IMG/VR virus record: IMGVR_UViG_3300032289_001431
Location: 1-64,000 of that record
DNA length: 64,000 nt
Origin: a virus
Direction: 5' to 3' (one strand)
The notes beneath the pieces are model-generated. The model was not told where the DNA came from. It did not search any database and was given only the letters and a program-made list of their open reading frames with translations. Within the stretch, counting starts at the first letter, position 1, and every line of letters begins with the position of its first letter. A program made the translations under genes and the position numbers. Positions 4 to 63,069 of the stretch are shown one piece after another.

Positions 4-537
4 ATGAATTTTCAAGAAAAACTTAAACATCAAACAAAAGACCTGCATGATTCTTCAGAAAATCATTCTTTTCATGTATCTTTACTAAAAGGTGAACTTC
101 CCGATCAAAAATATTTTTTATATCTACAAAATCTTTTACCAATTTTCATGTATATTGAACAAAGATTGAATTTATCGGGAGAACTTATTAGATCATTCTT
201 GATGAATAATGATCTTATGCAATATGCTAAAGATGGTTGTGTTTTTACAATCAACGATTTACATTATTTTGAATGGATGAATGAATTAGGTCAAAAATCA
301 GATTTAATGCTTCTTCCTGTTGTATATGTCGAATGGTTAAAAGACGTATATGGTGGTCAAATGCTTTCTAAACACATAAAATACAATTCTTCTTTAAAAT
401 ATAACAATACAAAGGAAACAATTACAAAAATTAGATCTATGCTTGTTATTTCACCTGAAGATGAAGATCAATTTATTTTTGAAGTAAATAAAGTTTACGA
501 AAATCATAATAAAATTTTAGATAAAATCATGGGATGA
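4..537 (+). CDS. ho1: Heme oxygenase (Ho1/HemO-like), divergent distal helix
   Basis: N-terminal LK..TK.LH..SE with proximal His; YVEWLKDVYGGQML aligns to the HO distal helix YxRYLGDLSGGQ; overlaps the bilin reductase start (ATGA). Confidence 0.85.
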   Translation: MNFQEKLKHQTKDLHDSSENHSFHVSLLKGELPDQKYFLYLQNLLPIFMYIEQRLNLSGELIRSFLMNNDLMQYAKDGCVFTINDLHYFEWMNELGQKSDLMLLPVVYVEWLKDVYGGQMLSKHIKYNSSLKYNNTKETITKIRSMLVISPEDEDQFIFEVNKVYENHNKILDKIMG

Positions 538-4958: not shown

Positions 4959-5399
4959 CTATATAATTACCTTATTATTGTTAAATTTCTTTAGTTCTTC
5001 TTTAGGTGCTTTACCTATTCTCATGTTTAAAATGCCATTATAGTAATCTTCTCTAAATAAAACATCCTTTTCCATTTGTTCTTTAGCTTCAAAATACGCT
5101 AAAGCCCATTTAGAATCACATACTTTTAATATTTTAAATTCAAATTTATCTTTTCCGTATTTTTGAATGTCTTTTATAAGTTCATTTGATGAACTTGTAT
5201 ATGTTTTCCAATCCGATTCTTTAAAATCAATTCTATTTCTGGTTTTACCTTTTAAAGGTTTACGTTTAACACGAGATGAACATTGTTTTTTACCGATATA
5301 TTTTTTATTAGATATTGTATTTGTTATTTCATATATAAATCCAAAAGATTTATCGGTAATACTAACACCTTCTTTTAAAATCCAATGTCCAGTATCCAT
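4959..5399 (-). CDS. denA: GIY-YIG endonuclease, T4 endonuclease II (DenA)-like
   Basis: FGFIYEITN..KKYIGKK, ESDW..Y.SS, E and YYN motifs; 146 aa with no homing DNA-binding tail. Confidence 0.75.
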   Translation of the reverse strand: MDTGHWILKEGVSITDKSFGFIYEITNTISNKKYIGKKQCSSRVKRKPLKGKTRNRIDFKESDWKTYTSSSNELIKDIQKYGKDKFEFKILKVCDSKWALAYFEAKEQMEKDVLFREDYYNGILNMRIGKAPKEELKKFNNNKVII

Positions 5400-8174: not shown

Positions 8175-9215
8175 ATGCCAGAGTCTTGTAACATAATAGC
8201 AAGTCAAAAAATAGGTTGTTTTTCAGATATTCATCTTGGCATAGGACAAGATAGTTCTATTTTTCATAAAATTTCTTTAGATTTTGCTAAATGGGCTTCA
8301 AATTTATATCAGGAAAACAATATTACCGAAATTATTATCCCCGGTGATATATTTCACAATAGAAGTCAAATTTCAGTTGAAACTTTAACAGTTGCTAAAC
8401 AATTTTTTGAGTATTTTAAAGATTTTAACATTTATATTTCAACAGGAAATCACGATTGTTTTAAAAAAGATTCTAGTGATATCAATTCAATTACGCTACT
8501 GGACGGTTGGAATAATATTAAAATAATTGATAATCAACTTTTAATTCTTAAAACTAACTATAATAAAACAATAGGACTTGTTCCATGGGGATATGATATT
8601 ACAAAAGTTCCTCATTGTGATATAATATTTGGTCATTTTGAAATATCTTCTTTTTATATGAACACATATAAAGTGTGTGAACACGGACATTCATATAAAA
8701 ATATGTTTGATATTGGTGATTGTATAATTTCGGGTCATTTCCACAAAAAAGATAACAGAAATTATGAAAATAATAAATCAATTACATACTTAGGAAGTCC
8801 ATATCAACACAATTTTGGCGATATACATGATATCAGAGGAATTTATATTTTTGACATATTAAACAATACTTTTCAATTTATAGAAAATGATATTTCACCC
8901 AAACATTATAAATTATCTATAAAAAAAGATATAGATGAGAATATAGTTAAAAACAATTTTGTTAGTATTGTTATCGATAATGATATTGAAGAAGATGAAA
9001 TAAATTCATACGCAGCTAAAGTAGCATCATTTAGCCCTAAAACATTAAGAATAGATTATGATGCCGAAAAAACAAGCATAGAAACACGCCAAGATGCGGA
9101 ACTTGATAGTTCTAATTTACTCAAAAGCATTGATGAATACATTGAAACATTGGATATAGAAAATAAAAAAGAAGTTGTAGAATATATAAAAGAGATGTAT
9201 AATTCTTTAATATGA
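8175..9215 (+). CDS. gp47: Recombination nuclease gp47 (Mre11/SbcD-like)
   Basis: SDIHLG, GDIFHNR, GNHD, GHFE, SGHFH and YLGSPY motifs. Confidence 0.93.
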   Translation: MPESCNIIASQKIGCFSDIHLGIGQDSSIFHKISLDFAKWASNLYQENNITEIIIPGDIFHNRSQISVETLTVAKQFFEYFKDFNIYISTGNHDCFKKDSSDINSITLLDGWNNIKIIDNQLLILKTNYNKTIGLVPWGYDITKVPHCDIIFGHFEISSFYMNTYKVCEHGHSYKNMFDIGDCIISGHFHKKDNRNYENNKSITYLGSPYQHNFGDIHDIRGIYIFDILNNTFQFIENDISPKHYKLSIKKDIDENIVKNNFVSIVIDNDIEEDEINSYAAKVASFSPKTLRIDYDAEKTSIETRQDAELDSSNLLKSIDEYIETLDIENKKEVVEYIKEMYNSLI

Positions 9216-9961
9216 AAGATATAGGAATAGCAATTATAGACGTTTATAGTCAAAATGACCTTGATTTATGTTATAAATCAATTCCAAATGAAATTGAAAA
9301 CATAATCGTAATCTCAAATACTAGTAATAAACTCCCTGATTGTGATAAAAAACAATTTAGCTCGACTATACCATTTGCAACTTTAAGAAATTGGGCAATT
9401 AATTATTTTAGAATAAAAGGTTTAAAACATTATTTTTTAATTAATTCAAATCACAGTTTAACCGATTCTGAAATTTTTAGCAAAATAATAAAAAACGCAG
9501 AAGTGTTTGGAACTTGGTGTTTTCTCGGACCAGAAAAAACAACTCTTTCAATTGAAGATGATGAACATAATATTACATTAAATCTTAGTAATAAAATTAA
9601 CAGTGATTTTATATATTTGTTTAATGGTATAGTTTCAAATATAGGATTTTTTGATGAAAGATTTTTTAATACAAAAGATCTTGATGTTTTAGATTATATC
9701 AAAAGAATGATAGATAAAAAAGTATTTCCACCCGTTGGTTATATTCCAATTATAAAAGAAGGTTTAGTTAAATCGGAATCAAACATAACAAAACCAAATT
9801 ATAAAGAAATAGATAATGCAGATCAAAGTGTTAATATGGCATATGCTTATTTCTTAAGCAAATATCAATACATACCCACTCAAAATGATCCAAAACCAGT
9901 ATCCAACGAGGAATTAATGGCATCTTTAGAAAATATACAGAAAAATTATGCAAAAAAATAA
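9212..9961 (+). CDS. GT2-like glycosyltransferase, degenerate paralogue
   Basis: KDIGIAII, A..RN.AI and IGFFDERF; resembles the next two ORFs but lacks a clear DxD/EDD. Confidence 0.6.
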   Translation: MKDIGIAIIDVYSQNDLDLCYKSIPNEIENIIVISNTSNKLPDCDKKQFSSTIPFATLRNWAINYFRIKGLKHYFLINSNHSLTDSEIFSKIIKNAEVFGTWCFLGPEKTTLSIEDDEHNITLNLSNKINSDFIYLFNGIVSNIGFFDERFFNTKDLDVLDYIKRMIDKKVFPPVGYIPIIKEGLVKSESNITKPNYKEIDNADQSVNMAYAYFLSKYQYIPTQNDPKPVSNEELMASLENIQKNYAKK

Positions 9962-10769
9962 AATAGGACTTGGTTTAATAACATGTGATAGACCAGATTT
10001 TTTCAAAAAATGCTACTCTTCGATAAAAACTATCAATGATAAATGTTTTGTAGTTGTTGATGATGGTAATACGTCTATAAAAGATTTAATAGATTCGGAA
10101 GAAAATTCCATACGTTACATTAAAACCAATGGAAAAGAGGGTGTAGCTGTTGCTAAAAATAAAGCATTGCGATATTTGATGGATTGTGAATGTGAACACA
10201 TTTTTTTAATGGAAGATGACATTATTATAAAAGATAATAATGTTTTTAATGCATATATTAAAGCTTCAAATGAAACGGGAATTAAACATTTTAATTTTGG
10301 TTTACATGGTAATCATAATTTGGATCATCTTGGTCGCCCCGTTATACAAACAACTATAAATTATCCAAATAAAATAAGAATAAGTCTATTTTCTAACGTA
10401 TTAGGTGCTTTTAGTTATTATCATTATGATGTTATTGATAAATGTGGATACATGGATGAATATTTTTACAATGCACTTGAGCACGTAGATCATACATACC
10501 AAATAATAAAAGCAGGATATCATCCTCCGTTTAGATGGTTTGCTGACATTGAAAATTCAACGCTTTACATACAAGATATTGTTAAAAATCATGATCAAAG
10601 TAAAATAAGATCACAAGATGATTATATGAAAAATTTTGTCAGAGCATTAGATTATTTTTTAAGTAAAAATAAATTTTCTGTTGTTCAGGGTTATGGAAGA
10701 CCCGAAACAATAGCATCCGAAAAAGAAGTAATTGAAAGTTTAAAAAAGATTTATAATGAACACAAATAA
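9948..10769 (+). CDS. GT2-family glycosyltransferase
   Basis: IGLGLIT.DR, VVVDDG, GVA.AKN, FLMEDD, GYMDE and EH.D motifs. Confidence 0.85.
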   Translation: MQKNKIGLGLITCDRPDFFKKCYSSIKTINDKCFVVVDDGNTSIKDLIDSEENSIRYIKTNGKEGVAVAKNKALRYLMDCECEHIFLMEDDIIIKDNNVFNAYIKASNETGIKHFNFGLHGNHNLDHLGRPVIQTTINYPNKIRISLFSNVLGAFSYYHYDVIDKCGYMDEYFYNALEHVDHTYQIIKAGYHPPFRWFADIENSTLYIQDIVKNHDQSKIRSQDDYMKNFVRALDYFLSKNKFSVVQGYGRPETIASEKEVIESLKKIYNEHK

Positions 10770-11532
10770 AATTGGCGTTGGTATAACAACTTATAATTCA
10801 GAAAAATATTTTAAAGCTTTATATGAATCGCTTCCGCTTTCAAATATTGAAGAATTAGTTGTTGTTAATGGTGGAAATCAATATGAGGGAAAATACGCTT
10901 GTCATTGGATACAACATAATCAAAATTATTATCCAGCCGTATGTCGAAATGATGCCATTAATTTTCTTCTAAATAGAGAATGCGAACATATTTTCATCAT
11001 AGAAGATGATATGATTATTAAAAATTCTAATATATTTAAAAAGTATATAGAAACTTCAAAAATATCAGGAATTAAATATTTTTCATATGTTAGTATGTCT
11101 TGGGATTCGGGTTCACCTTATAAAAGAACACCAAAATTGTCTGTAAATTATTCAAAAGATATTGGTGTATCTTTTTATAAAAACATGTGTAATGAATTTA
11201 CATATCACCATCATTCTTGTTTTCTTAAAAATGGATTATATGATACTCAATTTAGAGATCCTTTTGATATTGATATGGCTTATAGAGAATCTCAACAAGA
11301 TTATTCTTCTTTGTTTTGGTGGTTTGCTGATATTAAAAATTCAGATGAATATATAGAAAACAATCCAGACGCAACAAGTCGATTACAAACCGAACGTCCA
11401 GATGGTTCAAGACAAGAAACAATTAATAACCAATGGAAACTTTTTTTTAAAAAACACGGATTAACTGTAAATCAAATACCCGAACCAACAGAAAAAGAAC
11501 TTTTAAACAAACTAAAAACAATAAAGCCGTGA
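10756..11532 (+). CDS. GT2-family glycosyltransferase
   Basis: IGVGITTYN, A..RN and FIIEDD motifs; paralogue of 9948..10769. Confidence 0.82.
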   Translation: MNTNKIGVGITTYNSEKYFKALYESLPLSNIEELVVVNGGNQYEGKYACHWIQHNQNYYPAVCRNDAINFLLNRECEHIFIIEDDMIIKNSNIFKKYIETSKISGIKYFSYVSMSWDSGSPYKRTPKLSVNYSKDIGVSFYKNMCNEFTYHHHSCFLKNGLYDTQFRDPFDIDMAYRESQQDYSSLFWWFADIKNSDEYIENNPDATSRLQTERPDGSRQETINNQWKLFFKKHGLTVNQIPEPTEKELLNKLKTIKP

Positions 11533-12302
11533 AAATATCAATCGGAATTAATATTTTTCAATCTTATAAACGTCAAAATCAATGTATTGAAGTTTTAAAC
11601 GCATTAACTCGTAAATACAATGAGATAAATTTATACAATATAACATATATAGATCAAACAAATAAAACTTGTGGGTTTAAACATCTTCCTTTTTTAAAAA
11701 GAAAATGCAAAGATATTATTCAAAATTCTACTTCTGAAAAACCAATAGCTAAAGATTTTTTTGATATATTAGCCGATACTAGTTGTGATTATTTTATCTT
11801 TTTAAACAGCGACATTTTATTAGCAGAAAAAACAATAAAACTCATTTTAAAAGGTGAATATGAAACTTATTTTTTTTCAAGACATGATTGTTATCCAATA
11901 GAAAATATTAACAATATTGTACCATTTAGAATAGAAATAGCAGGGTTTGATGCTTGGGCCGTTAAAAAAACATGGTGGTTAGAAAATAAACAAAATTTTA
12001 ACGATTATGTATATGCTGAACATTTATGGGATGTTGCGTTTTCATTAGAAATGTACAATAAAAGTAAATCTTTTATAGGAAATAAAGATGTTTATCTTTG
12101 TCATGAAAAACATGATTTAAAATGGAACGAATTTTCACCAGAAGCTTTACATAATACAAAATTATGGGAAAAATCACCATATTCTAAAAATTGGAAAAAA
12201 TTTATATACGAGAATCTTGTAAAAAGACAACCATATGGTATGTTTTTAAACCCACTTCTTAATGAAGAAGAATTAGAAAAAAAATTACTTAAAGTGATAT
12301 GA
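11529..12302 (+). CDS. GT-A-fold glycosyltransferase-like protein
   Basis: FIFLNSDI, SR.D, GFDAW, WD and H.KH pattern. Confidence 0.6.
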   Translation: MKISIGINIFQSYKRQNQCIEVLNALTRKYNEINLYNITYIDQTNKTCGFKHLPFLKRKCKDIIQNSTSEKPIAKDFFDILADTSCDYFIFLNSDILLAEKTIKLILKGEYETYFFSRHDCYPIENINNIVPFRIEIAGFDAWAVKKTWWLENKQNFNDYVYAEHLWDVAFSLEMYNKSKSFIGNKDVYLCHEKHDLKWNEFSPEALHNTKLWEKSPYSKNWKKFIYENLVKRQPYGMFLNPLLNEEELEKKLLKVI

Positions 12303-12946
12303 AAATAAAACATTACACGTTTTTTAGTGATAGTCATAAAATATTTTTAAAATATTTTTTAAATTCTTTTCCATTTGATTCTTCAATAGATTTAATAATA
12401 AGATATATTCCACAAGAATGTAAATCGGCAGAATATGAATCAGAAGGATTCGACAAATCAATGAAAAAAAAAGTTGAATTTATAAACAATGCTTTTGATG
12501 AATTAAAAAATAATGATATTTTCATTTTTACCGATCCTGATGTAATTTTTATTAAACCATACAAAGATTTATTTTTAACAGAAATGGGAAATTCTGATAT
12601 AATATTTCAATCAGACGTTGGAACGGCATGTATGGGAATATTTTGTTGTAAAGTATCAGATAAAACAAAATTTTTCTTTAAAGATTTATATGATAAACTA
12701 GATAATTTTAAACACGATCAAGATGCGGCAAATGTATTATTAAGAATAAAAAATTATAATTTAAACATTAAATTGTTTTCACATAAAATTTTTAATTACG
12801 GATTTAATGGTGTTCGATATGAAGGCGAAGATAAAATTAACATTCCAAACGATATTGTATTATTACATGCTAATTTTGCAGTAGGCGTTGAAAAAAAAAT
12901 CAAGTTAATAAAATTAACATTAGATCAATTTAAAAAAAATATATGA
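12299..12946 (+). CDS. Nucleotide-diphospho-sugar transferase (GT77-like)
   Basis: FTDPDV, FQSD, CMG, DQD.AN and HAN...K motifs. Confidence 0.75.
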   Translation: MKIKHYTFFSDSHKIFLKYFLNSFPFDSSIDLIIRYIPQECKSAEYESEGFDKSMKKKVEFINNAFDELKNNDIFIFTDPDVIFIKPYKDLFLTEMGNSDIIFQSDVGTACMGIFCCKVSDKTKFFFKDLYDKLDNFKHDQDAANVLLRIKNYNLNIKLFSHKIFNYGFNGVRYEGEDKINIPNDIVLLHANFAVGVEKKIKLIKLTLDQFKKNI

Positions 12947-13611
12947 TTATTGGTAATGGTCTTATTGCTAACAGTTTAAAAGAAATAGATAACAATAATT
13001 TTATTTTTTTTGGAAGTGGTGTTTCAAACTCACTATCAACAGATACAAAGGAATTTACAAGAGAAAAAAATTTATTATTACAAACAATAAAAGAAAATAA
13101 TTTTAAAAAAATTATATACTTTAGCACATGTGATGTTTATGATTCATCAAAACAAAATTCTTTATATTTAAAACACAAATTAAACATGGAAGAAACAATT
13201 AAACTTAATTGTAAAGATTGGATTATATTTAGAGTTTCACAAATCATCGGACATGGTGGGAATAAAAACAATCTTCTTTATAAATTATGTTCAAATGTTT
13301 TTTCTGAATATAGCTTTGTATTATATTCAAATTATGAAAGAAATTTAATTGATATTAATGTTTTTAAAAAAATTATTTTAATGTATTTAGTCGCATCTAA
13401 TAAAGTTATTAACATTGCTAATCCTTTAAACATAAAAGTAAGCGAATTAATTAAATTAATTGAAGAAATAACAGGTAAAAAAGCAACATATGAAATTAAT
13501 ACCGATAAAAATACGTTTGACATACCATTAGACGAATCTTATCCTTATTACATTTTTAATTCAAATTATTATAGAGATACAATAAATTCTTTTTTAAAAA
13601 AATTTAATTAA
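12943..13611 (+). CDS. NAD-dependent epimerase/dehydratase (short SDR)
   Basis: MIIGNGLIA, SGVSNS, YFST and Y..HK..ME motifs. Confidence 0.8.
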   Translation: MIIGNGLIANSLKEIDNNNFIFFGSGVSNSLSTDTKEFTREKNLLLQTIKENNFKKIIYFSTCDVYDSSKQNSLYLKHKLNMEETIKLNCKDWIIFRVSQIIGHGGNKNNLLYKLCSNVFSEYSFVLYSNYERNLIDINVFKKIILMYLVASNKVINIANPLNIKVSELIKLIEEITGKKATYEINTDKNTFDIPLDESYPYYIFNSNYYRDTINSFLKKFN

Positions 13612-13631
13612 AAACAATTTTAAACATAAAA

Positions 13632-14513
13632 ATGATTAATGAAAAATATCACAACGAAAGTTTAGTAAATCCACCATATCCACCATATCACGAAGGATAT
13701 GATTTGGAATCTTATTTCATAAATTATTATTTAAACAATAAAAATAAAATAGATTCTACTGGGTGGAATTTTCTACCAATCAAATGGACTCATATATACA
13801 ATCAAAGACCAGATTTATCTAACAGTTTACAACAAGTTTTAAATAACCTTGATTTGAATAAAAAATATTTTACAGTTTCGCAACATGATGATGCACCTGC
13901 ACACAAATTACCACCACAAACAATAAATTTTTCAGCGGGTGGCAATCAACCTGATACCATTCCAATACCTCTTATATCTTCTCCTATAAAAAATATTAAA
14001 AATACACAAAAAAATATATTTTGTAGTTTTGTAGGAAGCGTTAATCAAAACATGCCGGGAAATGCTGCTATTGGACATCAAATAAGGATGCAAATGCTTC
14101 ATACATTGGTTGATAATAAAGATTATGTGTTAAAACCCAAACATTGGTCACCAGAAATAAACGAAAACAGACAGGATTTGTTTTTAGATATTACAAGTAG
14201 AAGCAAATTTACTTTATGTCCAAGAGGATATGGCGCATCTAGCTTTAGGATGTATGAAGCAATGCAATTAAATTCAGTACCAGTATACATTTACAATAAA
14301 ACACCGCATATACCATTTAAAGATGATATAAATTGGGAAGATATATCGGTTTTAATAGAAGCAAATGATATTCCACATATAGATTCTATATTAAAGTCAA
14401 TCAGTGATGAAAAATACAACAAAATAATTGACAATATTAAGAACTTTTATCCCAAATACTTTACATTAGAAGCCACTTGTGTTAATATAGTCAAGATTAT
14501 AAAAAATAAATGA
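13632..14513 (+). CDS. Exostosin-family (GT47) glycosyltransferase
   Basis: SFVGS, R, SKFTLCPRGYG.SSFRMYEAM..VPV and PF..I.W motifs. Confidence 0.85.
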   Translation: MINEKYHNESLVNPPYPPYHEGYDLESYFINYYLNNKNKIDSTGWNFLPIKWTHIYNQRPDLSNSLQQVLNNLDLNKKYFTVSQHDDAPAHKLPPQTINFSAGGNQPDTIPIPLISSPIKNIKNTQKNIFCSFVGSVNQNMPGNAAIGHQIRMQMLHTLVDNKDYVLKPKHWSPEINENRQDLFLDITSRSKFTLCPRGYGASSFRMYEAMQLNSVPVYIYNKTPHIPFKDDINWEDISVLIEANDIPHIDSILKSISDEKYNKIIDNIKNFYPKYFTLEATCVNIVKIIKNK

Positions 14514-15073
14514 AAACTATTTTAGATATAGGGTGTAATAATTTAGATGGTTTTAAATTGTTAAAGACACAGGAAACAATTAACGATGAAGATGTTAAAA
14601 TATTCGTAGAAGCTAATCCAGAATGTTGGATAGACTTGGAAAGAGATATTAAAAGCATAGAAAATTCATTTTTAATCAAAAAAGCAGTAGATACTGAAGT
14701 AAAAACAACAACTCTAATAACTAGAAACGATAAAATTAAAGATATTGGAGCGACAATAATGGGTGAAAAATTCTTAACTGATAGTTTGGGACGCTTTAAT
14801 ATTAAAATAGACAAATATAATCATTATAATATTGAAACGACTACAATTATTGATATTATTAATGATTTTAAAATCAATACCGAAGAGTGTATTTTAAAAT
14901 TTGACGCAGAGGGTGTTGAATATGCGGTATTAAAACAAATTTTAGAAAATAATATAATCTTTAAAAAGATATATTGTGAATTTCATGTTCACAATCAACA
15001 AGATGAAAATAAAAGGCAAAATATAATCAATAGTTTTAAAGAAAAAAACCAAGAAATCGTAGAATGGCACTAA
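14510..15073 (+). CDS. FkbM-family methyltransferase
   Basis: LDIGCN..G, VEANP, LKFDAEG.EY and EFH motifs. Confidence 0.8.
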   Translation: MKTILDIGCNNLDGFKLLKTQETINDEDVKIFVEANPECWIDLERDIKSIENSFLIKKAVDTEVKTTTLITRNDKIKDIGATIMGEKFLTDSLGRFNIKIDKYNHYNIETTTIIDIINDFKINTEECILKFDAEGVEYAVLKQILENNIIFKKIYCEFHVHNQQDENKRQNIINSFKEKNQEIVEWH

Positions 15074-15927
15074 AAAACATTTTTACCAATTCTGAGTATT
15101 TAAAATCAGTTGGAGCAAATCAATCATTTGGTAATCATTTATGCCATTTAATGTTTTGTCATAATTTCAGCAAAAAAAGAAATTATAAATTAAACATTTG
15201 CACAGATACTAATTTGAGTAGTATATTTGAATTAGATGAATATAAAAGCACATGGAATAATAATATAGTAAATTATTTTTCAGAATCATTTGTTCATGAT
15301 ATAGAAGAACTTAAAAAAATAGATCGTTTAAATTTAAATAAATCTTTAAATTTATTAAATGACGAAACATTAGATATACCGGATAATATTTCTGTAACTG
15401 GATGGTTTTATAATACACCATTATATTCTAAATCTTTTTTTAATGATATAAAAATAAAAAAAGACATAATTGATTTTTTAAATCAAAACTTTAGTAGAGT
15501 TTTTGAAAAAAATTCTATATCAATACATTATAGAGGAACCGACTTCAATGGTCATTTGGGATATGATTTAAGATTACCTTTTGAATATTATGAAAAATGC
15601 ATTCATCACATGATAAAAAATCATAAAAATATAAAAAACATTTATGTTTTTACTGATGATAGTTTTGAATGTTTAAAATTAATAGATATTATTAAAAATA
15701 TTGATAGTTCGTTTAATATAGAACTTATTCAAAATGAATATTACATAGATTGGGCTTGTTTACATTTTTCAAAAAACATAATATCATCAAACTCATCATT
15801 CTGTTCAACAGCATGTATTTATGATAAAGAAATTTGCTACCAACCCAATAAATATCAATTAAGAAACACGCCAATTGATGGTGTTTATCCTAGCGAACCA
15901 TTTTTTAAAAATTCTTATATATTATGA
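15064..15927 (+). CDS. GT11 (alpha-1,2-fucosyltransferase-like) glycosyltransferase
   Basis: FGNHL, SIHYRGTDF, YY, VFTDD and SNSSF motifs. Confidence 0.8.
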   Translation: MALKNIFTNSEYLKSVGANQSFGNHLCHLMFCHNFSKKRNYKLNICTDTNLSSIFELDEYKSTWNNNIVNYFSESFVHDIEELKKIDRLNLNKSLNLLNDETLDIPDNISVTGWFYNTPLYSKSFFNDIKIKKDIIDFLNQNFSRVFEKNSISIHYRGTDFNGHLGYDLRLPFEYYEKCIHHMIKNHKNIKNIYVFTDDSFECLKLIDIIKNIDSSFNIELIQNEYYIDWACLHFSKNIISSNSSFCSTACIYDKEICYQPNKYQLRNTPIDGVYPSEPFFKNSYIL

Positions 15928-16496
15928 AAATATTACAAATAGGCTGTCATACTGGAAATGATCATGTTTATCATTTTATAACTGAAAATTCTAATAATAT
16001 AGAAAAATTATATTTAATAGATGCTAATATATATTCTTTAAATGAATGTAAAAATAACTATGCAAACGTTGATAATGTTAATTTTTTAAATTATGCAATT
16101 ACACCTACAGATGTTGAATATATTGATATTGTATTACCCGCTAACGAATTAACATCAAGTCATGTATCAGTATTTGAATCACATTTACACCAACACAATC
16201 ATAACAATCTTATAAAACAAAAAGTAAAAGCAGTTAATATAAATAAATTATTTGAAGAATTGAACTTATCTGTAATTGATAGATTTTATATAGACACTGA
16301 AGGCTTAGATGTTCAAATAATCAATTCAATAGATTTTTCTAAAATTGATATTAAAATATTGATGTTTGAATTTATTCATTCGGATGGAACTCTTTCTTGG
16401 GGTGGCATAAATTTACATAATTGTTTAATGAAATTATTAAACTTAGGATATTCCATCATAAAAGAAGAATATAATATTATTGCCACAAAACAATAA
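15924..16496 (+). CDS. FkbM-family methyltransferase
   Basis: LQIGC..G.D, NYAI, IDTEGLD and FE..H motifs. Confidence 0.8.
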   Translation: MKILQIGCHTGNDHVYHFITENSNNIEKLYLIDANIYSLNECKNNYANVDNVNFLNYAITPTDVEYIDIVLPANELTSSHVSVFESHLHQHNHNNLIKQKVKAVNINKLFEELNLSVIDRFYIDTEGLDVQIINSIDFSKIDIKILMFEFIHSDGTLSWGGINLHNCLMKLLNLGYSIIKEEYNIIATKQ

Positions 16497-16511
16497 ATTT
16501 AAATAAAACAT

Positions 16512-16539
16512 TTGATTATTCTGGATATTGATTTAATAT
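16512..16539 (+). promoter_or_regulatory. Sigma70-type promoter for gp46
   Basis: TTGATT-16-TAATAT; GTG start 6 nt downstream. Confidence 0.55.
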
Positions 16540-16545
16540 ATCAGG

Positions 16546-18339
16546 GTGAAGAATGTAATCTTTAACTCTATAAAGATAAAAAATTTCCTTTCCATTGGAA
16601 ACAATCCAATTAAAATTGATTTTGCCAAAGGTATTACTGTAATCACAGGAGAAAATAAAGATAAGGGTGGTAAAAATGGAATTGGTAAAAGTACAATAGC
16701 AGATGCAATTTTTTGGTGTTTATTTGGAAACACAATTAGAGAATTAAAAAAAGATAAGATACAACATAACAAAAATAAAGAAGAATGTCAGGCTATTTTA
16801 GAATTTACTGTAAAAGATTCTTTAACAACCAAATATAAAATAACAAGAACTTTAGATCCAACAAAAATAGAAATTTTATGTAATGATCAGGATATTACAT
16901 TATCAACTTTACCTAAAAACGATGAATTTATCAAAACTCTTATAGGTGCTAACGAAGAAGTGTTTAACAATGCAGTTATTATGTCTGCAAATAACACCAT
17001 TCCGTTTATGGCGCAAAAAAAGACAGAAAAAAGAAAATTTATTGAAGGAATACTTCAATTAAACATTTTTAGTGAAATTTTATTAAAAACTAGAAGTGAT
17101 TACAATGATACAAAAAAAGAAAATGATATTATTAGTAATATTTTTATTAATCTTCAAAGAGATTTAAATACATTTGAAATTCAATTAGCAAACGAAGATA
17201 AAAAGAAACAAGAAAAAATTGATAATTGGAATTACAATATTAAATCAAATGAAAAGACAATTAAAGAATGTAAAGATAAAAAATTTCCATCCGTGGATGA
17301 GTGTAATAACGATATTAAAAAATTAGAAGAACAAATTTTTCTTTTAAAGGAAGGAATCAAAACTTTTTCTAAAAACAAAACAGATACTATATTAAAAAGT
17401 TCAAACATATCTGCTGAAATCAATCAACTTAAAAAAGAAAAACAAAAAATAAAAGATAAAGGTAATACATGCCCAACTTGCAATAGAGAATATTGCAAAG
17501 ACGATATTGAATCTGTTAATAAAAGATTAACAGATATTGAAAATGATATTATAAAATTTTCTAATGAAGAATCGACCGTTAATGAACAAAAAAATTCTTG
17601 GGCAAACAAAATAGAAAAAATAGAAGATGGTATTGATAAGATTAACAAAAAAATTAAAAATTTAATTCAAATTAAATTAGACATTAAAGATAATGATCAT
17701 AAAATTTCTAAATGTGAACATGACATTAAAAATTTCAAACAATTTATTGTTGAAATTAATAAAGAAAAATCATCAACTAAAGTAAACATAGATAATGTAA
17801 AAAAAGAAATACAAATTAATGAAGAAAAGCTTAAAAACATTAAAAAAGACATGGCAATACTTGATACCGTCAAGTTTATTATGTCTGAGGATGGAGTCAA
17901 AAAATACATTGTAAAAAAAATCATCAATATTCTTAATACAAGACTTAACTATTATTTACAGACGCTTGATGCGCCCTGTAAATGTGTGTTTGATGAAACG
18001 TTTGAAGAAACAATTTATAATGAACAAAATAAAGAATGTTCATATTTTAATTTTAGTGGTGGAGAACGTAAAAGAATTGATACCGCTATACTTTTTACAT
18101 TTCAAGACGTATTGAGGTGTCATTCTGGTATATCTTTTTCTTTGAATATATATGATGAACTTTTTGATTGCGCTTTAGACGCAAAAGGAACAGATAAAAT
18201 TCTTGAAATACTTAAAGATAAGGTTGCAAAATATGACGAATCAATTTATATTGTATCTCACAAATCATCTGAAATCACAAATTGCGATAACATAATTTTA
18301 TTAGAAAAATTTAATGGTGTTACAACAATAGTTAGTTGA
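16546..18339 (+). CDS. gp46: Recombination ATPase gp46 (Rad50/SbcC-like)
   Basis: KNFLSIGN, NGIGKS, coiled coil with CPTC zinc hook, FSGGE and YDE..D motifs. Confidence 0.95.
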   Translation: MKNVIFNSIKIKNFLSIGNNPIKIDFAKGITVITGENKDKGGKNGIGKSTIADAIFWCLFGNTIRELKKDKIQHNKNKEECQAILEFTVKDSLTTKYKITRTLDPTKIEILCNDQDITLSTLPKNDEFIKTLIGANEEVFNNAVIMSANNTIPFMAQKKTEKRKFIEGILQLNIFSEILLKTRSDYNDTKKENDIISNIFINLQRDLNTFEIQLANEDKKKQEKIDNWNYNIKSNEKTIKECKDKKFPSVDECNNDIKKLEEQIFLLKEGIKTFSKNKTDTILKSSNISAEINQLKKEKQKIKDKGNTCPTCNREYCKDDIESVNKRLTDIENDIIKFSNEESTVNEQKNSWANKIEKIEDGIDKINKKIKNLIQIKLDIKDNDHKISKCEHDIKNFKQFIVEINKEKSSTKVNIDNVKKEIQINEEKLKNIKKDMAILDTVKFIMSEDGVKKYIVKKIINILNTRLNYYLQTLDAPCKCVFDETFEETIYNEQNKECSYFNFSGGERKRIDTAILFTFQDVLRCHSGISFSLNIYDELFDCALDAKGTDKILEILKDKVAKYDESIYIVSHKSSEITNCDNIILLEKFNGVTTIVS

Positions 18340-18368
18340 TTAATACACCATGACTTATAAATTTAAAT

Positions 18369-19664
18369 ATGGCATTAAAAATAAAAGAAAATAATGGTAA
18401 TAACGTTGTATTTCAATACAATCCAGTTAGAACTAATATACCAAACCCACCAGCAGCAATGCCAATAGGTATGCCCACCTACAGTTATGCTGGTATGCAC
18501 CCCGTAAAATTACCAGATCCACCTAAATTGGAAATGCCAGAAGCAAATTTACCACGAGCCATCAATTACTATGCCGATTATGGTGGTTGTGGGTTTTGGA
18601 GAATGGTTTGGCCTGAGTTTCTTATGAATGCTTACACTAAAGCATGTATGTCAGGTCTTACTCAAATGATTTTAGATTTAAGATTTTATGGTGGCATTAA
18701 AGCTATAAGAATGCAACGTCAAGCGACACCCATTCAAAGAGATTTTATTAAAGAATTAAAAAAAGCGCAGAGTCATTTTAAATATAGATTAATTTATGAA
18801 GTCGATGATATCGTCTTCAAAGATGATATTCCTGATTACAATCGTTGTAAAGATGCTTTTGTTGATCAAAATATCACCGATAGTATTTTAGAGATCATGC
18901 AAACAATGGATGAGATGACTGTTACTTGTAAATACATGAAAGAATATTATCAAGATAAAACAGGTAATAAAAACATAACAGTTATTCCAAATTATCCTCC
19001 TAAATTCTGGTTAGATCGTTTTTATGAGAAAGAAAGAATTGAAAGATTGTACGACGAAAACAAAAAACGTCCTAGAATATTGTATTCTGGATCAGGAACA
19101 CATGTTGATGTGTTAAATCGCACTGGATTGAATGATGATTTTAAACACGTTACCGATGCAATTATAAAAGCACGTAAAAAATTTAAATTTGTATGGAAAG
19201 GTTGTTTCCCATTGGTACTAAAACCATATATTGATAACGGCGATATGGAATATATCGATTGGTCACCCCTTCATGATTATCCAAAAGGTCTTTATGATAC
19301 AAATTGTAACGTATCTTTTGCACCATTGATTGATAATGTTTTTAATAAATCAAAATCTAATATTAAAATGATAGAAGCTGGTGGTTTAGGTATGCCGGGA
19401 GTATATCAAGACCTTTGTACATACGAAGAAGCTGAATTTAAATTCAAAACTGGTGATGATTTAATTCAACAGCTTGAGTATATAACATCTGATCATAGCC
19501 GATATATGAGATTATCAGAAAAAGCCAGAAAATTCACTGAAGGATTGTGGTTAGAAGACCATTTAGACGAATATGAAGCAATGTATTTTACCGAATGGGG
19601 TTCAAAAGAAAGAAAAAAAATGGCTCCAAAACTTATATTAAACAATCCAGATCAAGATTCTTGA
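18369..19664 (+). CDS. GT-B-fold (GT4-like) phage glycosyltransferase with Pro-rich N-terminus
   Basis: ADYGGCGFWR..WP, YEVDD, VIPN and APL.DN.FNKSKSNIK..EAG motifs. Confidence 0.8.
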   Translation: MALKIKENNGNNVVFQYNPVRTNIPNPPAAMPIGMPTYSYAGMHPVKLPDPPKLEMPEANLPRAINYYADYGGCGFWRMVWPEFLMNAYTKACMSGLTQMILDLRFYGGIKAIRMQRQATPIQRDFIKELKKAQSHFKYRLIYEVDDIVFKDDIPDYNRCKDAFVDQNITDSILEIMQTMDEMTVTCKYMKEYYQDKTGNKNITVIPNYPPKFWLDRFYEKERIERLYDENKKRPRILYSGSGTHVDVLNRTGLNDDFKHVTDAIIKARKKFKFVWKGCFPLVLKPYIDNGDMEYIDWSPLHDYPKGLYDTNCNVSFAPLIDNVFNKSKSNIKMIEAGGLGMPGVYQDLCTYEEAEFKFKTGDDLIQQLEYITSDHSRYMRLSEKARKFTEGLWLEDHLDEYEAMYFTEWGSKERKKMAPKLILNNPDQDS

Positions 19665-19694: not shown

Positions 19695-22265
19695 ATGGCG
19701 TATAGAAACGTTTATTATGATTCCCGAAATGGTGCTATGCACCTGTGGACTTGGGATGATGATGGTAACAGAATTACTCGTGTTACTAGTTATGAGCCAT
19801 ATTTATACATTGAATCTGAGCACGGTACAGATGCTACATCTGTTTTTAAAACTCCCCTTAAAAAGTTAATATTTAAAAATCAAAAAGCTAGAAAATCTTA
19901 CGTTGAAACGACACCAATTACGAGATTATTTTACAATCTTGAAATTCAACAGCAATTTTTACTTGAAACTTTTAAAGATGATATTGATAAGCCGGGATTT
20001 GGAACACAACCACTCAAAATTTTTTATCTTGATATTGAAACTTATGCAACTGATCACTTTGCATCACCAGAAATAGCTAGTGATCCTGTAAACCTTATAA
20101 CGGTTTATGATTCTTTATCAAAACAGTATTATACTTGGGGTTGTAAAAATTATTCCACATTAGAAGAAGACGTAACTTATATTAAATGTAAAGATGAAAG
20201 AGATTTGTTAAAGAGTTTTGTTAATTTTTGGAGAAACGACCCACCTGATATTGTTACCGGATGGAACGTTCATGGGTATGATATACCATACATCATGAAT
20301 AGATTGTCGAAAATATTTGAAGATGATTATAAAGAAAAATTATCACCAGTTAACAAGCTTTGGTTACAAGAAAAAGCATCTATTAACAAATTAGGTAGAG
20401 AACTTGACAGATGGCACGTTGCGGGTGTCAGTATTATCGATTATATGGATCTCTATGAAACTCTTTGTGGTGGAAAAAGAGAGTCAATGTCTTTAAATTA
20501 TATATCAGAATATGAATTAGGTGAGTCTAAAATAGCTATTGGTAGCACATCATTATCAACTCTTGCTGATACTGATTGGTTTAAGTTTACAGATTACAAT
20601 ATTCAAGACGTACGCTTGCTGGTAATGCTTGAAAACAAGTTAAAATACTTGCAACTCATTAGAAATCTTGCATATCGTGGATTTATTCCATTTCAAAAAT
20701 CAATGGGTAAAGTTTCAATGATTACTGGTGCTGTTGCACATCAAGCATTATCACAAAACATGATAATTCCTACATTTAACGTGGATAATGTGAAACAAGA
20801 TTTTGCTGGTGGTTTTGTTTATGAACCAGTAAAAGGTTTATATGATGATGTTGTGACGTATGATGCTAATAGTTTGTATCCAAATACAATTATTACTTTA
20901 AATATATCAACTGAAACCAAAATAGGCAAAATTATTGCTCGAAGTAAAGATGGTATTACTTTAAAATTAACTAATAATAAAATTGTAGATCTTACTAATG
21001 AAAAATTTGAAGAAATAGTTAAATCTGAGAAACTTTGCATAACAAAAGCTGATGTTTTGTATACACAAAGATTTAAAGGAGTCGTACCTACCCTTATTGA
21101 TAAATTATACTCTGAAAGAGTAAAGGCAAAAGATAAAACATTACAAGCTAAACTCAAATTAAAAAAAGCAAAAACACCAGAAGATAAACAAAAGTACCAA
21201 GAAGAGGTTAATGATAACGATACATTGTCAAATGTGTATAAAGTATTTTTAAACTCAATATATGGTGTATTTTCTAACATATTTTCACCTCTATTTGACA
21301 TTGATCATGCGGAAAGTGTAACGTTATCGGGTCAAGCGGTTGTTAAAAAGGGTCCAGAAATTATATATGAGTATGCCAAACGATCTGGGTTTTCTGGTAA
21401 GTTGGAAGATATTTTAATTTATCAAGATACTGACAGTGAATTCTTTTCATTTAAAGAAATATTACAAAATAAAAACACTTCTCTACTAAAAGACGGAGAA
21501 ATCACCAAAGAAGCATACGATATTATCGATGAATATGGTAAAGTTTTAAATAATGGAATTAACGAATGGGCTAAATTAGAATTTAAATCAATCGACCCTC
21601 GTTATGTTTTTAAACGAGAAAAAATATGTGACGTTGCGTTACTTCAAGCTAAAAAATTCTACATTCTTCACATTTTAGACAAAGATGGCGTTAAAACCGA
21701 AGAGTTTGAATACAAAGGGATTGAAGTTGCCAAAGCAACTTTATCAAAAGAAGTTAAAGAATTGATTAAAAATGTTATAGAATCAGCAATTATTGCTAAA
21801 AATAGAAAAATAGCGATTCATTTGTTTCAAGAGGGATATGAAAAATTTTGTAATATGTCTACAATTGAAATTGCTACGAGAAAAAAGATTAATAATTATG
21901 AAAAATACAGCAATATGATTGATGGTAATGGTGGTTTTGGTAAAGGAACTCCCGGTCATGCTAAAAGTTGTATTAATTTTAATGATGCTCTTAAAAAATT
22001 AAAAATTGATGATAAATATCCAGCAATTGCTAATGGAACTAAGATTAAATTTTTTTATTGCAAGAAAAACATATATGCATATGAGACAATGGGTTTTATA
22101 GATGAATATCCAAAGGAGTTACTTGCAGTGATTAAGCCTGATTATCGTTTTATGTTTGAAAAAAACGTAGTTCCGCTATTAACAAGGATATTTAACGTTA
22201 TTGGTTGGCCTACTCCCGCAATTGGGTGCGAAGAGGCTACAGATTTAACAGAATTATTTTCATGA
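19695..22265 (+). CDS. gp43: Family B DNA polymerase gp43
   Basis: DIET, GWN...YD and YNIQD exonuclease motifs; YDANSLYP, KVFLNSIYG and YQDTDS polymerase motifs. Confidence 0.96.
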   Translation: MAYRNVYYDSRNGAMHLWTWDDDGNRITRVTSYEPYLYIESEHGTDATSVFKTPLKKLIFKNQKARKSYVETTPITRLFYNLEIQQQFLLETFKDDIDKPGFGTQPLKIFYLDIETYATDHFASPEIASDPVNLITVYDSLSKQYYTWGCKNYSTLEEDVTYIKCKDERDLLKSFVNFWRNDPPDIVTGWNVHGYDIPYIMNRLSKIFEDDYKEKLSPVNKLWLQEKASINKLGRELDRWHVAGVSIIDYMDLYETLCGGKRESMSLNYISEYELGESKIAIGSTSLSTLADTDWFKFTDYNIQDVRLLVMLENKLKYLQLIRNLAYRGFIPFQKSMGKVSMITGAVAHQALSQNMIIPTFNVDNVKQDFAGGFVYEPVKGLYDDVVTYDANSLYPNTIITLNISTETKIGKIIARSKDGITLKLTNNKIVDLTNEKFEEIVKSEKLCITKADVLYTQRFKGVVPTLIDKLYSERVKAKDKTLQAKLKLKKAKTPEDKQKYQEEVNDNDTLSNVYKVFLNSIYGVFSNIFSPLFDIDHAESVTLSGQAVVKKGPEIIYEYAKRSGFSGKLEDILIYQDTDSEFFSFKEILQNKNTSLLKDGEITKEAYDIIDEYGKVLNNGINEWAKLEFKSIDPRYVFKREKICDVALLQAKKFYILHILDKDGVKTEEFEYKGIEVAKATLSKEVKELIKNVIESAIIAKNRKIAIHLFQEGYEKFCNMSTIEIATRKKINNYEKYSNMIDGNGGFGKGTPGHAKSCINFNDALKKLKIDDKYPAIANGTKIKFFYCKKNIYAYETMGFIDEYPKELLAVIKPDYRFMFEKNVVPLLTRIFNVIGWPTPAIGCEEATDLTELFS

Positions 22266-37513: not shown

Positions 37514-38125
37514 ATGCATAATATCAGTTTTTCATACCCCCCAATAGGCATTGCAGGAGCAGCAAGAGCAGGAAAAGACACCCTCTGTAGAGGTATAATT
37601 CGACAATTAAAAGAATATAAAATAGATGCTATTCGCAAATCTATCGCTGGTGATGCGGTTAAGACAGATTTAAAAGATTTTATATCAAAAAAGTTTAATC
37701 TTGACGCTTTTACTGAAAATTCTGATGATAAAGAATTTATGCGACCATTATTAGTCGAATATGGTAAGATGCAGAGAAGTAAAACCAAAGGTAGATATTT
37801 TATTAATGCGTTTACAATTATACCAAATTTTGTTAATATATTACCCGATATTCGTTATATAGAATATGAACAAGATGAAGTATATTGGCTTAAAAATGAA
37901 GTAAAAGGTCTTTTAATCTTTATTAAAAGAAAAGGAATACAAGATGCTAATGATACTGAGAGAGTTAATAATAAAATTATCAGTAGTATGGCTGATTATA
38001 TTTTAGAGTGGGATACTTTAAAAGAAAAAAACCCAGAAGATGTTTTGCAAATTGATTATTATGCCAAATGGATAGTTGATCAATATTATATACCAATGAT
38101 ATATTCAGCTACCACTTGCCAATAG
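37514..38125 (+). CDS. Deoxynucleoside monophosphate kinase (gp1-like)
   Basis: IGIAGAARAGKDT P-loop, K...RPLL..YG..R and PDIRY..E motifs. Confidence 0.82.
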   Translation: MHNISFSYPPIGIAGAARAGKDTLCRGIIRQLKEYKIDAIRKSIAGDAVKTDLKDFISKKFNLDAFTENSDDKEFMRPLLVEYGKMQRSKTKGRYFINAFTIIPNFVNILPDIRYIEYEQDEVYWLKNEVKGLLIFIKRKGIQDANDTERVNNKIISSMADYILEWDTLKEKNPEDVLQIDYYAKWIVDQYYIPMIYSATTCQ

Positions 38126-62691: not shown

Positions 62692-63069
62692 ATGAAAAAA
62701 TTATTATTACTAACAATAGTATTACTAACAGCATGTCAAACAACTCCAACAAATCCAGAATTTTGGATGGAAAGAGAAATTAACGCATGTCTTCCAACCG
62801 CTATCACATTCCGTGAGAGCCTAAAAAAATATAATGTATGGGCTGAAGTTTTTACATATCGTTGGTACAATGCAGAGGAAAAAAAAGGTCACGGTCATGC
62901 AATGGTTGCCTATCTTTATCCAAAAGGTAAAAATCAATTGTGGACATACGATACTTTAGGTTCATATAGAACAAGAGCTTTTACAAACAATGTTTATCAA
63001 ATAGCCCAACAAGCGCATTCTGTTAGAGGTGATACTAATAAAATATTTTTAGCTGAATTTATAAAATGA
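62692..63069 (+). CDS. Lipoprotein with papain/transglutaminase-like Cys-His-Asp motif
   Basis: MKKLLLLTIVLLTA-C lipobox; NACLP, GHA and WTYD motifs. Confidence 0.65.
   Translation: MKKLLLLTIVLLTACQTTPTNPEFWMEREINACLPTAITFRESLKKYNVWAEVFTYRWYNAEEKKGHGHAMVAYLYPKGKNQLWTYDTLGSYRTRAFTNNVYQIAQQAHSVRGDTNKIFLAEFIK

Follow-up and report, generated by a model that had tools for sequence, protein, structure and literature searches.

The DNA studied here is a stretch of 64,000 nucleotides, hereafter the window, which forms the first 64 kb of a 72,531-bp IMG/VR viral record (IMGVR_UViG_3300032289_001431, here G000; ~34% complete by estimate). It belongs to a T4-like myophage, and its replication block holds, between gp47 and gp46, a dense run of genes that we read as an island for glycan assembly. 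The ten genes of the gp47-gp46 gap are called i01-i10, and i11 denotes a glycosyltransferase (GT) gene of the GT-B type between gp46 and gp43; related IMG/VR loci carry L-numbers, and G006 is the record of locus L080. The genes of the block are the following.

8175-9215, + strand: gp47, SbcD/Mre11-like nuclease subunit, the 5' anchor (PHROG 100, 3e-62)
9212-9961, + strand: i01, GT2-like GT-A paralog without a DXD/EDD motif (hhalign probability 99%, E 6e-18, to i02/i03-type paralogs)
9948-10769, + strand: i02, GT2-family GT-A protein (PHROG 2456, 2e-30; Pfam GT2 1.5e-4, narrowly under the cut-off)
10756-11532, + strand: i03, GT2-like GT-A protein, third paralog, with an EDD motif (PHROG 2456, 1.5e-15)
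11529-12302, + strand: i04, clade-specific protein of predicted GT-A fold (AlphaFold2 model, predicted local distance difference test score (pLDDT) 95.9)
12299-12946, + strand: i05, Nucleotid_trans protein, GT77-type (PF03407, 1.2e-14, 55.2 bits against a cut-off of 22)
12943-13611, + strand: i06, short protein like short-chain dehydrogenases/reductases (SDRs), 222 amino acids (RmlD_sub_bind E 0.002; PHROG 540, 1e-7)
13632-14513, + strand: i07, exostosin/GT47-type protein (PF03016, 2.1e-19, 70.4 bits against 33.4; RXYLT1_C 1.5e-11)
14510-15073, + strand: i08, FkbM methyltransferase (PF05050, 29.5 bits against 22.7; TIGR01444, 38.7 against 37.7)
15064-15927, + strand: i09, glycosyltransferase, weakly GT11-like (PHROG 2644, generic GT, 1.7e-8)
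15924-16496, + strand: i10, FkbM methyltransferase (PF05050, 38.2 bits against 22.7)
16546-18339, + strand: gp46, SbcC/Rad50-like subunit, the 3' anchor (PHROG 77, 5e-95)
18369-19664, + strand: i11, core GT-B (GT4-like) glycosyltransferase (PHROG 7162, 1.7e-22; AlphaFold2 model, pLDDT 84)
19695-22265, + strand: gp43, family-B DNA polymerase, the downstream flank (PF00136 and PF03104)

An earlier note on this DNA had described gp47 and gp46 as split by 7.3 kb of packed genes, and the open reading frames (ORFs) were recovered exactly where it had placed them: ten + strand ORFs occupy 9212-16496, which is the whole of the gap. The stop codon of gp47 and the start of i01 share 4 nt, and the ORF junctions are mostly overlaps of 4-14 nt, otherwise gaps of 20 and 49 nt. 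The island thus comprises seven glycosyltransferases or GT-like proteins, one short SDR-like protein and two FkbM methyltransferases, with i11 lying outside the gap. Among the eleven family assignments that had been proposed, the GT2-like, GT-A, GT77-type, GT47, GT-B and both FkbM assignments hold, whereas the 'SDR epimerase' and the 'GT11' amount to weak matches. As had also been noted, no membrane anchor is apparent: Kyte-Doolittle hydropathy predicted no membrane segment in any of the eleven window proteins, the maximum 19-residue mean being 1.34. The wider description, of a multi-enzyme system for a methylated glycan made up of soluble proteins inside the 55-47-46-43 replication block, agrees with our results, as does the statement that the DNA alpha-glucosyltransferase gene a-gt adjoins gene 47 in T4, where the order is 55, a-gt, 47, 46.2, 46.1, 46 ... 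43 and the 47-46 spacing is 443 bp. The early sigma70 promoter proposed at 8141 fares less well, as it is a 9-of-12 match of which the region holds 136 where 144.5 are expected; the T4 late motif TATAAATA occurs 13 times against 18 expected. With both at or below chance, the sequence is therefore silent on the timing of expression. The G+C content across the window is ~0.23-0.38 and reaches its minimum over 12-18 kb (0.23-0.245 at 12001-18000, which covers the distal island and gp46; flanks 0.25-0.31).

The three paralogs at the head of the island differ at one telling position. EDD (E89 D90 D91) is invariant among the orthologs of i02, a gene conserved clade-wide, and where i02 and i03 have 'MEDD/IEDD' the i01 protein carries 'INSNH'; across 22 orthologs of i01, EDD/DXD is replaced by S-N-H/Q. 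Since the DXD-type motif is missing, it is doubtful that i01 is an active GT-A enzyme, and it may be non-catalytic, metal-independent, a pseudo-enzyme or a specificity subunit. It directly follows gp47 in all 18 complete non-redundant islands, and its profile gave 0 matches to PDB sequences. By contrast with i01, i02 and i03 are predicted to be GT-A fold enzymes by their EDD motifs, as is i04 by its structural model. The best PDB sequence matches of i02 are weak (GalT1 5hea, 2.5e-4; SunS 7msp, 0.02). For i04 there was no match in Pfam, PHROG or NCBIfam, and none of its 91 homologs holds a Pfam domain, any names given to them being 'hypothetical protein'. The top Foldseek matches of its model are TarP (first), RmlT, TarS and SpsA, with E values down to 2.5e-7; TarP is a prophage-encoded GT-A enzyme, a wall teichoic acid transferase. 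N93 and D95 are invariant in the 'NSD' stretch of i04, and hhalign found no relation between i04 and i02 (probability 1.6%), though both have the GT-A fold. Of the two weakly matched genes, i06 is possibly the remnant of a sugar-nucleotide epimerase or reductase, to judge from its family matches; it has no homolog in the 18 other islands and is a window-only gene among those compared. By BLASTP, the i09 protein weakly resembles a GT11 protein from L084 (E 0.008), with 'IHYRGTDF' aligned to 'IHVRRGDY' in the H-x-R-x-x-D region; it has no Pfam match (PF01531 included) and gave 0 matches in a PDB sequence search.

The island across the clade

A search of IMG/VR with gp46 yielded 79 related loci, and the island proved to be a shared feature: 4.3-9.5 kb separates gp47 from gp46 in 23 of the 24 loci that hold both flanks. 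The lone exception, L080, is the most distant (gp46 38% identical) and has the two genes 11 nt apart. We analysed 18 non-redundant islands, leaving aside the duplicates L016, L022, L037, L045, L057 and L072 and incomplete islands. Every gene called in these 18 islands is on the + strand and tightly packed. Their 174 proteins, together with the 11 window proteins i01-i11, make 185, which fall into 72 families at ≥25% identity and 60% coverage. The i01/i02/i03 family is the sole family present in all 18 and always heads the island after gp47.

Pfam was scanned with one representative from each of 66 families, the GT2 head family and five window-only families being skipped. The glycosyltransferase types found were GT6, GT7 (fused, beta-4-GalT-like), GT10, GT11, GT25, GT32, GT47, GT77-type, FUT8-like, TOD1/MUCI70-like and GT1-type; the other families were GDP-mannose 4,6-dehydratase, other SDRs, a sugar C-methyltransferase, an AsnB-like amidotransferase, and methyltransferases of the FkbM, CmcI and Methyltransf_24 types, with ~25 of the 66 representatives matching no Pfam family. 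Neither the window island proteins nor the 66 representatives gave a Pfam match to Wzx, Wzy, a ligase, an initiating phosphoglycosyl-transferase or GtrA/B/C. A Kyte-Doolittle mean of 1.6 was reached in 4 of the 174 proteins of the relatives, but each stretch contains charged residues and is read as a strand and not as a membrane span, so that convincing membrane segments number 0 among the 185 proteins. We also observed that nine of the 18 islands (L015:7191-8678 and eight others) encode a fusion of 478-498 amino acids, which joins an i03-like GT2 to a eukaryote-type GT7 (beta-1,4-galactosyltransferase-like); the window island is without it.

The content of the islands does not follow the relatedness of the phages. 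For instance, L038 and L046 share all eight island families at a gp46 identity of 56%, L003 and the window share one family at 62%, and the island closest to that of the window belongs to L079 (families 0-0-0-3-..-10-..-19) despite a gp46 identity of 45% (tblastn). The mean Jaccard similarity of island content is 0.12-0.25 in each band of gp46 identity. Island content thus does not track gp46 identity, which we read as a sign that cassettes move between phages. In G006, an i02 homolog heads an island of GT2, GT11, FkbM, GT10, FkbM, GT1 and epimerase genes that starts ~7.5 kb past the end of the L080 stretch carrying gp47 and gp46. This displaced island and the mosaic content of the others lead us to infer that the island is a mobile unit, which in most of the clade has come to lie between two conserved genes usable as recombination anchors. 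In our reading, the window block is one allele of a clade-wide, hypervariable, cassette-exchanging locus for glycan assembly, which these uncultured aquatic T4-like phages maintain between two essential genes, gp47 and gp46.

The GT-B gene i11

The i11 gene is present in each locus that spans gp46 to gp43, and no other gene of the block is as conserved. Relative to the window gene, its identity has a median of 71%, compared with 53% for gp43 and 48% for gp46; it surpasses gp43 in 51 of 52 loci and gp46 in all 52. The model of its product, with two Rossmann domains and GT4-type similarity, points to a GT-B fold of the GT4-like kind. Foldseek placed it near TreT, BA1558 (GT4), SenB, PglA, HepE, BshA, WaaG, PimA and MshA (E 7e-10 to 1e-7), with SPS, OtsA and GlgM as further structural neighbours, and among viral structures it matches generic 'GT group 1' proteins. 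No Pfam GT1 match reached the threshold and the profile had 0 matches to PDB sequences. The comparison with T4 a-gt, one of the DNA glucosyltransferases that the earlier note had in mind, was negative, hhalign finding no homology between it and the i11 profile (probability 0.4%). Among the tblastn matches listed (69 records), most are to Phapecoctavirus and Streptomyces phages at ~24% identity, and none is to a T-even or RB69-type phage. The homolog in the Streptomyces phage Zuko lies beside a sugar epimerase, immediately upstream of terminase and portal; those of phAPEC8-type phages belong to a set of four consecutive GT genes close to primase and polymerase.

What connects i11 with the island is solely its neighbouring position and the spill-over of island-type genes. 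The gp46-i11 gap of some relatives holds TylF and Methyltransf_24 O-methyltransferases, a GT47 or a radical-SAM gene, and the O-methyltransferases and the GT47 tie i11 loosely to the glycan system. We observed the radical-SAM-like gene, a Fer4_12 gene of ~250 amino acids that is probably QueE-like, in the gp46-i11 gap of nine or more related loci (among them L079:11821-12573, L044:11816-12568 and L054:11834-12586); such a gene also lies at L084:5162-5905, and in G006 it occurs together with FolE and QueD.

The i11-gp43 gap of some relatives holds homing endonucleases. GIY-YIG (SegE-like) and HNH/NUMOD3 homing endonuclease genes are dispersed over the replication block in this phage as in its relatives, that gap included:

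window 4959-5399, - strand
L081:1944-2531, + strand
L081:5812-6231, - strand
L010:13140-14000, - strand
L043:14630-15526, - strand

The first of these is the nuclease that had been called DenA-like; a GIY-YIG gene is indeed present there, and its annotation is SegE-like.

The acceptor of the glycan

The glycosyltransferase, methyltransferase and dehydratase content of the islands fits a complex hetero-oligosaccharide, and we consider it very probable that the locus is a soluble glycan-assembly island and not a DNA modification system. Since all of the products are predicted to be soluble, assembly would take place in the cytoplasm of the infected cell. As to what is glycosylated, our preferred and still tentative reading is that phage proteins are modified in the cytoplasm, the likeliest acceptor being one or more proteins exposed on the particle; virion proteins and host lipopolysaccharide (LPS), which the earlier note had named as fallback targets, are both live options. 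In the mechanism that we propose, the conserved i02 and i03 with their EDD motifs, the DXD-less i01 and perhaps i11 would initiate and assemble a shared inner glycan, the acceptor being constant between phages. Swappable distal enzymes, here the GT-A, GT77-type, GT47-type and GT11-like transferases and the two FkbM methyltransferases, would add strain-specific sugars and O-methyl caps, and homologous recombination within the conserved flanks would shuttle these cassettes among phages. The outcome would be a lineage-specific glycan coat comparable to those of chlorovirus capsids and mycobacteriophage virions.

Several lines of evidence point towards phage proteins. A phage-intrinsic acceptor is suggested because i11 exceeds the DNA polymerase in conservation, and the suggestion extends to the constant GT2 head, kept while other genes diverged to ~50%. 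The lack of membrane-linked steps would likewise favour such an acceptor. Weak hints come from the i11 homolog near the Streptomyces phage terminase and portal and from the matches of i02 to GalT1 and SunS, which glycosylate proteins or peptides. A candidate O-glycosylation acceptor, by composition, lies just beyond the window end: a mucin-like protein of 296 amino acids (L081:3572-4462, - strand, which is G000 65571-66461) with 22.6% Thr, 16.6% Pro and 11.8% Ser, in which TPTPTP, YPSYPS and TPTG repeats flank a middle domain of ~100 residues. No other ORF of the record shows runs of this kind, and the gene has a G+C content of 39% against 30% for the genome. No Pfam family was matched, and a weak match to phrog_15511 (function unknown) runs across the repeats; an atlas look-up of the middle domain gave FN3/Ig-like clusters at 0.81-0.83, below the meaningful level. 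Thr-Pro (TP) linkers or C-terminal TP tails also occur in three of five closer relatives, all of them partial genomes. Their bearers include likely virion proteins, namely a fusion of a gp15-like tail-sheath stabiliser with a Fib_succ_major domain and two fibre-like proteins of the Gly_rich_2 type, besides a subtilase and an unknown protein; some tails are of the type (TPTPTK)n (loci L093:873-1985, - strand; L091:766-2490, - strand; L095:250-2271, + strand; L092:40-1698, + strand). The complete relative G001 has TP stretches within very long open frames.

A number of observations weigh against glycosylation of phage proteins. We know of no glycoprotein in any T4-like phage, and TP linkers can be plain, unglycosylated spacers. 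Exact TPTPTP was found in one of five complete, more distant island-bearing relatives, so TP repeats are rejected as a clade-wide feature and the TP proteins are candidates for the subclade only. The island lies in the replication block, away from structural genes, and in G006 it adjoins PhoH, FolE, QueD and QueE-like genes. The matches of i02 to GalT1 and SunS are weak and span the N-terminal nucleotide-binding part only. Because i11 stays in place between gp46 and gp43 in L080, where the island is located elsewhere, it may be independent of the island, and many of its structural neighbours (TreT, BshA, MshA, SPS, SenB) are, on the evidence of the model, small-molecule glycosyltransferases. 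GT2, GT10, GT11 and GT25 are typical of LPS and lipooligosaccharide (LOS) synthesis, and soluble peripheral GTs could use host lipid-linked intermediates and host flippases. In the literature, comparable clusters of marine T4-like phages are read as serving host-surface modification (PMC7029224, PMC12801897).

The foremost rival is accordingly that the island remodels the host envelope, a possibility which we regard as real, though somewhat less likely. Soluble GTs at the inner face of the membrane would modify lipid A-core, undecaprenyl-linked O-units or capsule precursors, host flippases would export the glycan, superinfection would be blocked and the loss of progeny on debris prevented. The enzyme repertoire speaks for this reading, as GT25, GT11, GT10, GT2, GT1, epimerases or dehydratases and methyltransferases are found in bacterial O-antigen and LOS loci, and hypervariability with cassette exchange parallels the diversity of host surface glycans; TarP, moreover, is the top structural match of i04. 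It is also the published, untested interpretation of pelagimyophage GT clusters (PMC7029224) and of those in S-SCSM2R, S-SCSM1 and P-SSM2 (PMC12801897). However, the 18 islands and the window lack an initiating transferase, flippase, polymerase, ligase, Gtr protein or membrane segment, and the conservation of i11 and the presence of the head genes in 18 of 18 islands across presumably varied hosts fit it poorly. A lytic phage would, in addition, have to bring the new glycan to the surface within a single infection cycle.

Improbable, in our estimation, is another soluble acceptor. The system might glycosylate host proteins and so subvert the cell, or make an oligosaccharide that is free or joined to a small molecule (for example a glycoside, a compatible solute or a signalling glycan), and i11 may be a metabolic enzyme in its own right with no relation to the island. 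All of the enzymes are predicted to be soluble, many neighbours of i11 act on small molecules (TreT, BshA, MshA, SenB, SPS, OtsA, GlgM), and the position of i11 in L080 accords with such a separation. Against this, 5-12 strain-specific, fast-swapping outer GTs and methyltransferases are hard to explain for a metabolite, GT-B fold neighbours are poor predictors of the acceptor, and no phage precedent is known to us.

The earlier note had preferred phage DNA as the target; a methylated oligosaccharide on a DNA base would in that case counter restriction. Position speaks for it, being collinear with that of a-gt between 55 and 47 in T4, as do the high conservation of a GT-B gene near the polymerase and the gp1-like deoxynucleoside monophosphate (dNMP) kinase, which is indeed in the window (37514-38125; PHROG 139, 8e-8). 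According to PMC13326640, the DNA arabinosyltransferases of DLP3 and RB69 have BshA, MshA and sucrose-phosphate synthase as structural neighbours; as GT4-like neighbours are thus shared with DNA-modifying enzymes, the fold of i11 cannot be used to exclude DNA. The enzymes that would make the acceptor, however, were absent from the five relatives of 99-100% completeness in which we searched for them: ThyA family (PF00303), 0 of 5, with a control that matched in 10 of 14 genomes; C5 DNA methylase (PF00145), 0 of 5; and DpdA/TGT (PF01702), 0 of 5, with a control that matched in 14 of 14. Tet/JBP (PF12851) was likewise found in 0 of 5, but this result is uninformative because its control matched in no genome. 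A scan of ORFs from the 72.5 kb record itself likewise gave no member of the ThyA, C5-methylase, DpdA or TET families; in the window, the earlier note had already seen no base hydroxymethylase. The ThyA family makes 5-hydroxymethylcytosine (5hmC), 5-hydroxymethyluracil and, according to the same source, the newly described 5-hydroxycytosine (5hoC) acceptor, and the longest DNA glycan described there has three sugars (PMC13326640), whereas at least eight GTs of eukaryote-like families are present here. Ordinary dTMP precursors would be made with the ThyX and dCMP deaminase that the record encodes, i11 has no homology to T4 a-gt, the timing argument is at chance and the content of the island is freely exchanged among phages. 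Modification of DNA is therefore very improbable, and we give the same slight chance to its last form, a multi-sugar, O-methylated glycan on DNA made without any known acceptor-making enzyme and with i11 as base-proximal transferase.

A 7-deazaguanine DNA modification, considered for the Fer4_12 gene of the gp46-i11 gap and for the FolE and QueD of G006, was rejected since DpdA is found in 0 of 5. QueC occurs in three of the five near-complete relatives. Because DpdA was not found, we infer that the preQ0 genes belong to tRNA-queuosine auxiliary metabolism.

The carrier phage, related systems and biological meaning

The phage has a T4-like gene set of UvsY, UvsW, gp55, gp47, gp46, gp43, ThyX, UvsX, a gp41-like helicase, gp32, terminase, sheath, tube, baseplate parts and ribonucleotide reductase, and it has no close cultured relative. 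By tblastn, its gp43 is ~31% identical to cyanophage gp43, and the best terminase matches are to Sinorhizobium, Agrobacterium and Rhizobium phages (31-37%, the top identity of 37% being to Sinorhizobium and Agrobacterium phages) and to cyanophages (30-32%). Megablast of the island against cultured phages gave zero matches. An attempt to identify the host through homologs of i09 found none in 185,579 species genomes, and the i11 profile matched a single phage-like contig, inside a metagenome-assembled genome. The identity of the clade with 'moraphages', which are said to be without much of the machinery typical of other large phages (PMC12619734), was rejected, as was that with fonsimyophages, said to be without LPS genes and filtered at 30-35% G+C (PMC7029224).

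Some further genes deserve mention. A heme oxygenase gene (window 4-537, + strand) is followed by one for a ferredoxin-dependent bilin reductase (534-1202, + strand), a pair of pigment-pathway auxiliary genes in a phage of 28-30% G+C that is distant from cyanophages; by their predicted functions they do not settle the identity of the host. What had been called a rhamnose-pathway enzyme is an RmlD-family SDR (63066-63965, + strand) by PF04321 (67.4 bits against 27), but it remains under the equivalog cut-off of TIGR01214 (63.5 bits against 224); it could possibly supply a 6-deoxyhexose donor, though without a link to the island. Outside the window lies a short adenylosuccinate-synthetase-like gene of 332 amino acids (L081:8202-9200, - strand, which is G000 70201-71199), scoring 263 bits with PurA models (under the cut-offs) and 106 with PurZ (cut-off 300); it may be PurA-like or may relate to the synthesis of 2-aminoadenine.

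Variable islands rich in GTs have been published before for aquatic T4-like phages. The pelagimyophage host-recognition cluster (PMC7029224) and the clusters of S-SCSM2R, S-SCSM1 and P-SSM2 (PMC12801897) likewise belong to aquatic T4-like phages and consist of variable runs of soluble GTs (GT2, 10, 11, 25, 1) and sugar epimerases whose function is untested. Unlike these clusters, the locus described here is fixed between gp47 and gp46, within the replication block and not in the structural or tail-fibre region, it is headed by three GT2 paralogs that include a DXD-less member, its GT-B neighbour outdoes the polymerase in conservation, and it is rich in methyltransferases of the FkbM, TylF or CmcI type. 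A literature search outside supplementary gene tables found no description of a fixed gp47-gp46 locus, a conserved head or an ultra-conserved GT-B neighbour.

Other glycan systems offer closer or looser parallels. Bacterial O-antigen and LOS loci are flanked by conserved genes, e.g. galF-gnd in Enterobacteria. The island resembles them in its conserved flanks, its mosaic, recombining cassettes and its mixture of GTs with sugar-modifying enzymes; it differs in that Wzx, Wzy, WaaL and an initiating transferase are missing, and in being carried by a lytic-type phage. The glycosyltransferases of actinobacteriophages reportedly glycosylate the C-termini of capsid and tail-tube subunits (Freeman et al. 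2023). The likeness lies in the distant homolog of i11 in Zuko, with its sugar epimerase upstream of terminase and portal; homology is confined to i11, at ~24% identity, and those systems are of two to four genes beside structural genes in phages of Gram-positive hosts, whereas here there are 10-13 genes in a replication block. Chlorovirus glycosylation involves methyltransferases and a strain-specific outer decoration, with genes that are scattered and form no single swappable cassette. The capsid of chlorovirus PBCV-1 is glycosylated by A064R, A111/114R and A075L (PMC7826918, PMC11571054), and a core glycan is conserved in all chloroviruses and in antigenic variants (PMC7826918). There as here, virus-encoded soluble GTs build an unusual glycan, which chloroviruses place on their own capsid protein; they are, however, eukaryotic algal viruses with the proven acceptor Vp54. 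T4, with a-gt and b-gt acting on 5hmC, and RB69 and DLP3, with poly-arabinosyl-5hoC (PMC13326640), share a GT-B gene in the 55-47-46-43 neighbourhood and GT4-like structural neighbours. Unlike these DNA glycosylation systems, the present clade has no ThyA-type hydroxylase, C5-methylase or DpdA in the relatives searched, i11 shows no a-gt homology, and the GT families are more numerous and different.

The locus can be regarded as a natural collection of glycosyltransferases and sugar methyltransferases, compact and soluble, of families that are usually seen in eukaryotes (GT6, 7, 10, 11, 47, 77 and FUT8-like). To our knowledge, self-made sugar coats of virions have so far been shown only for giant algal viruses and actinobacteriophages. 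Should the glycan decorate the particle, self-made and strain-specific sugar coats would occur throughout a large, widespread group of lake phages, with a bearing on adsorption, survival, grazing and immune or lectin recognition, and this would be the first virion glycosylation system in its phage group, the T4-like phages of Gram-negative water bacteria. If the glycan is instead on the host, the island would amount to serotype conversion by a lytic phage using soluble enzymes alone. In either case, i11 stands out as an unexplained and near-essential function of the clade, conserved beyond its DNA polymerase, and the islands reveal cassette exchange in the style of O-antigen loci at work within the replication module of a phage.

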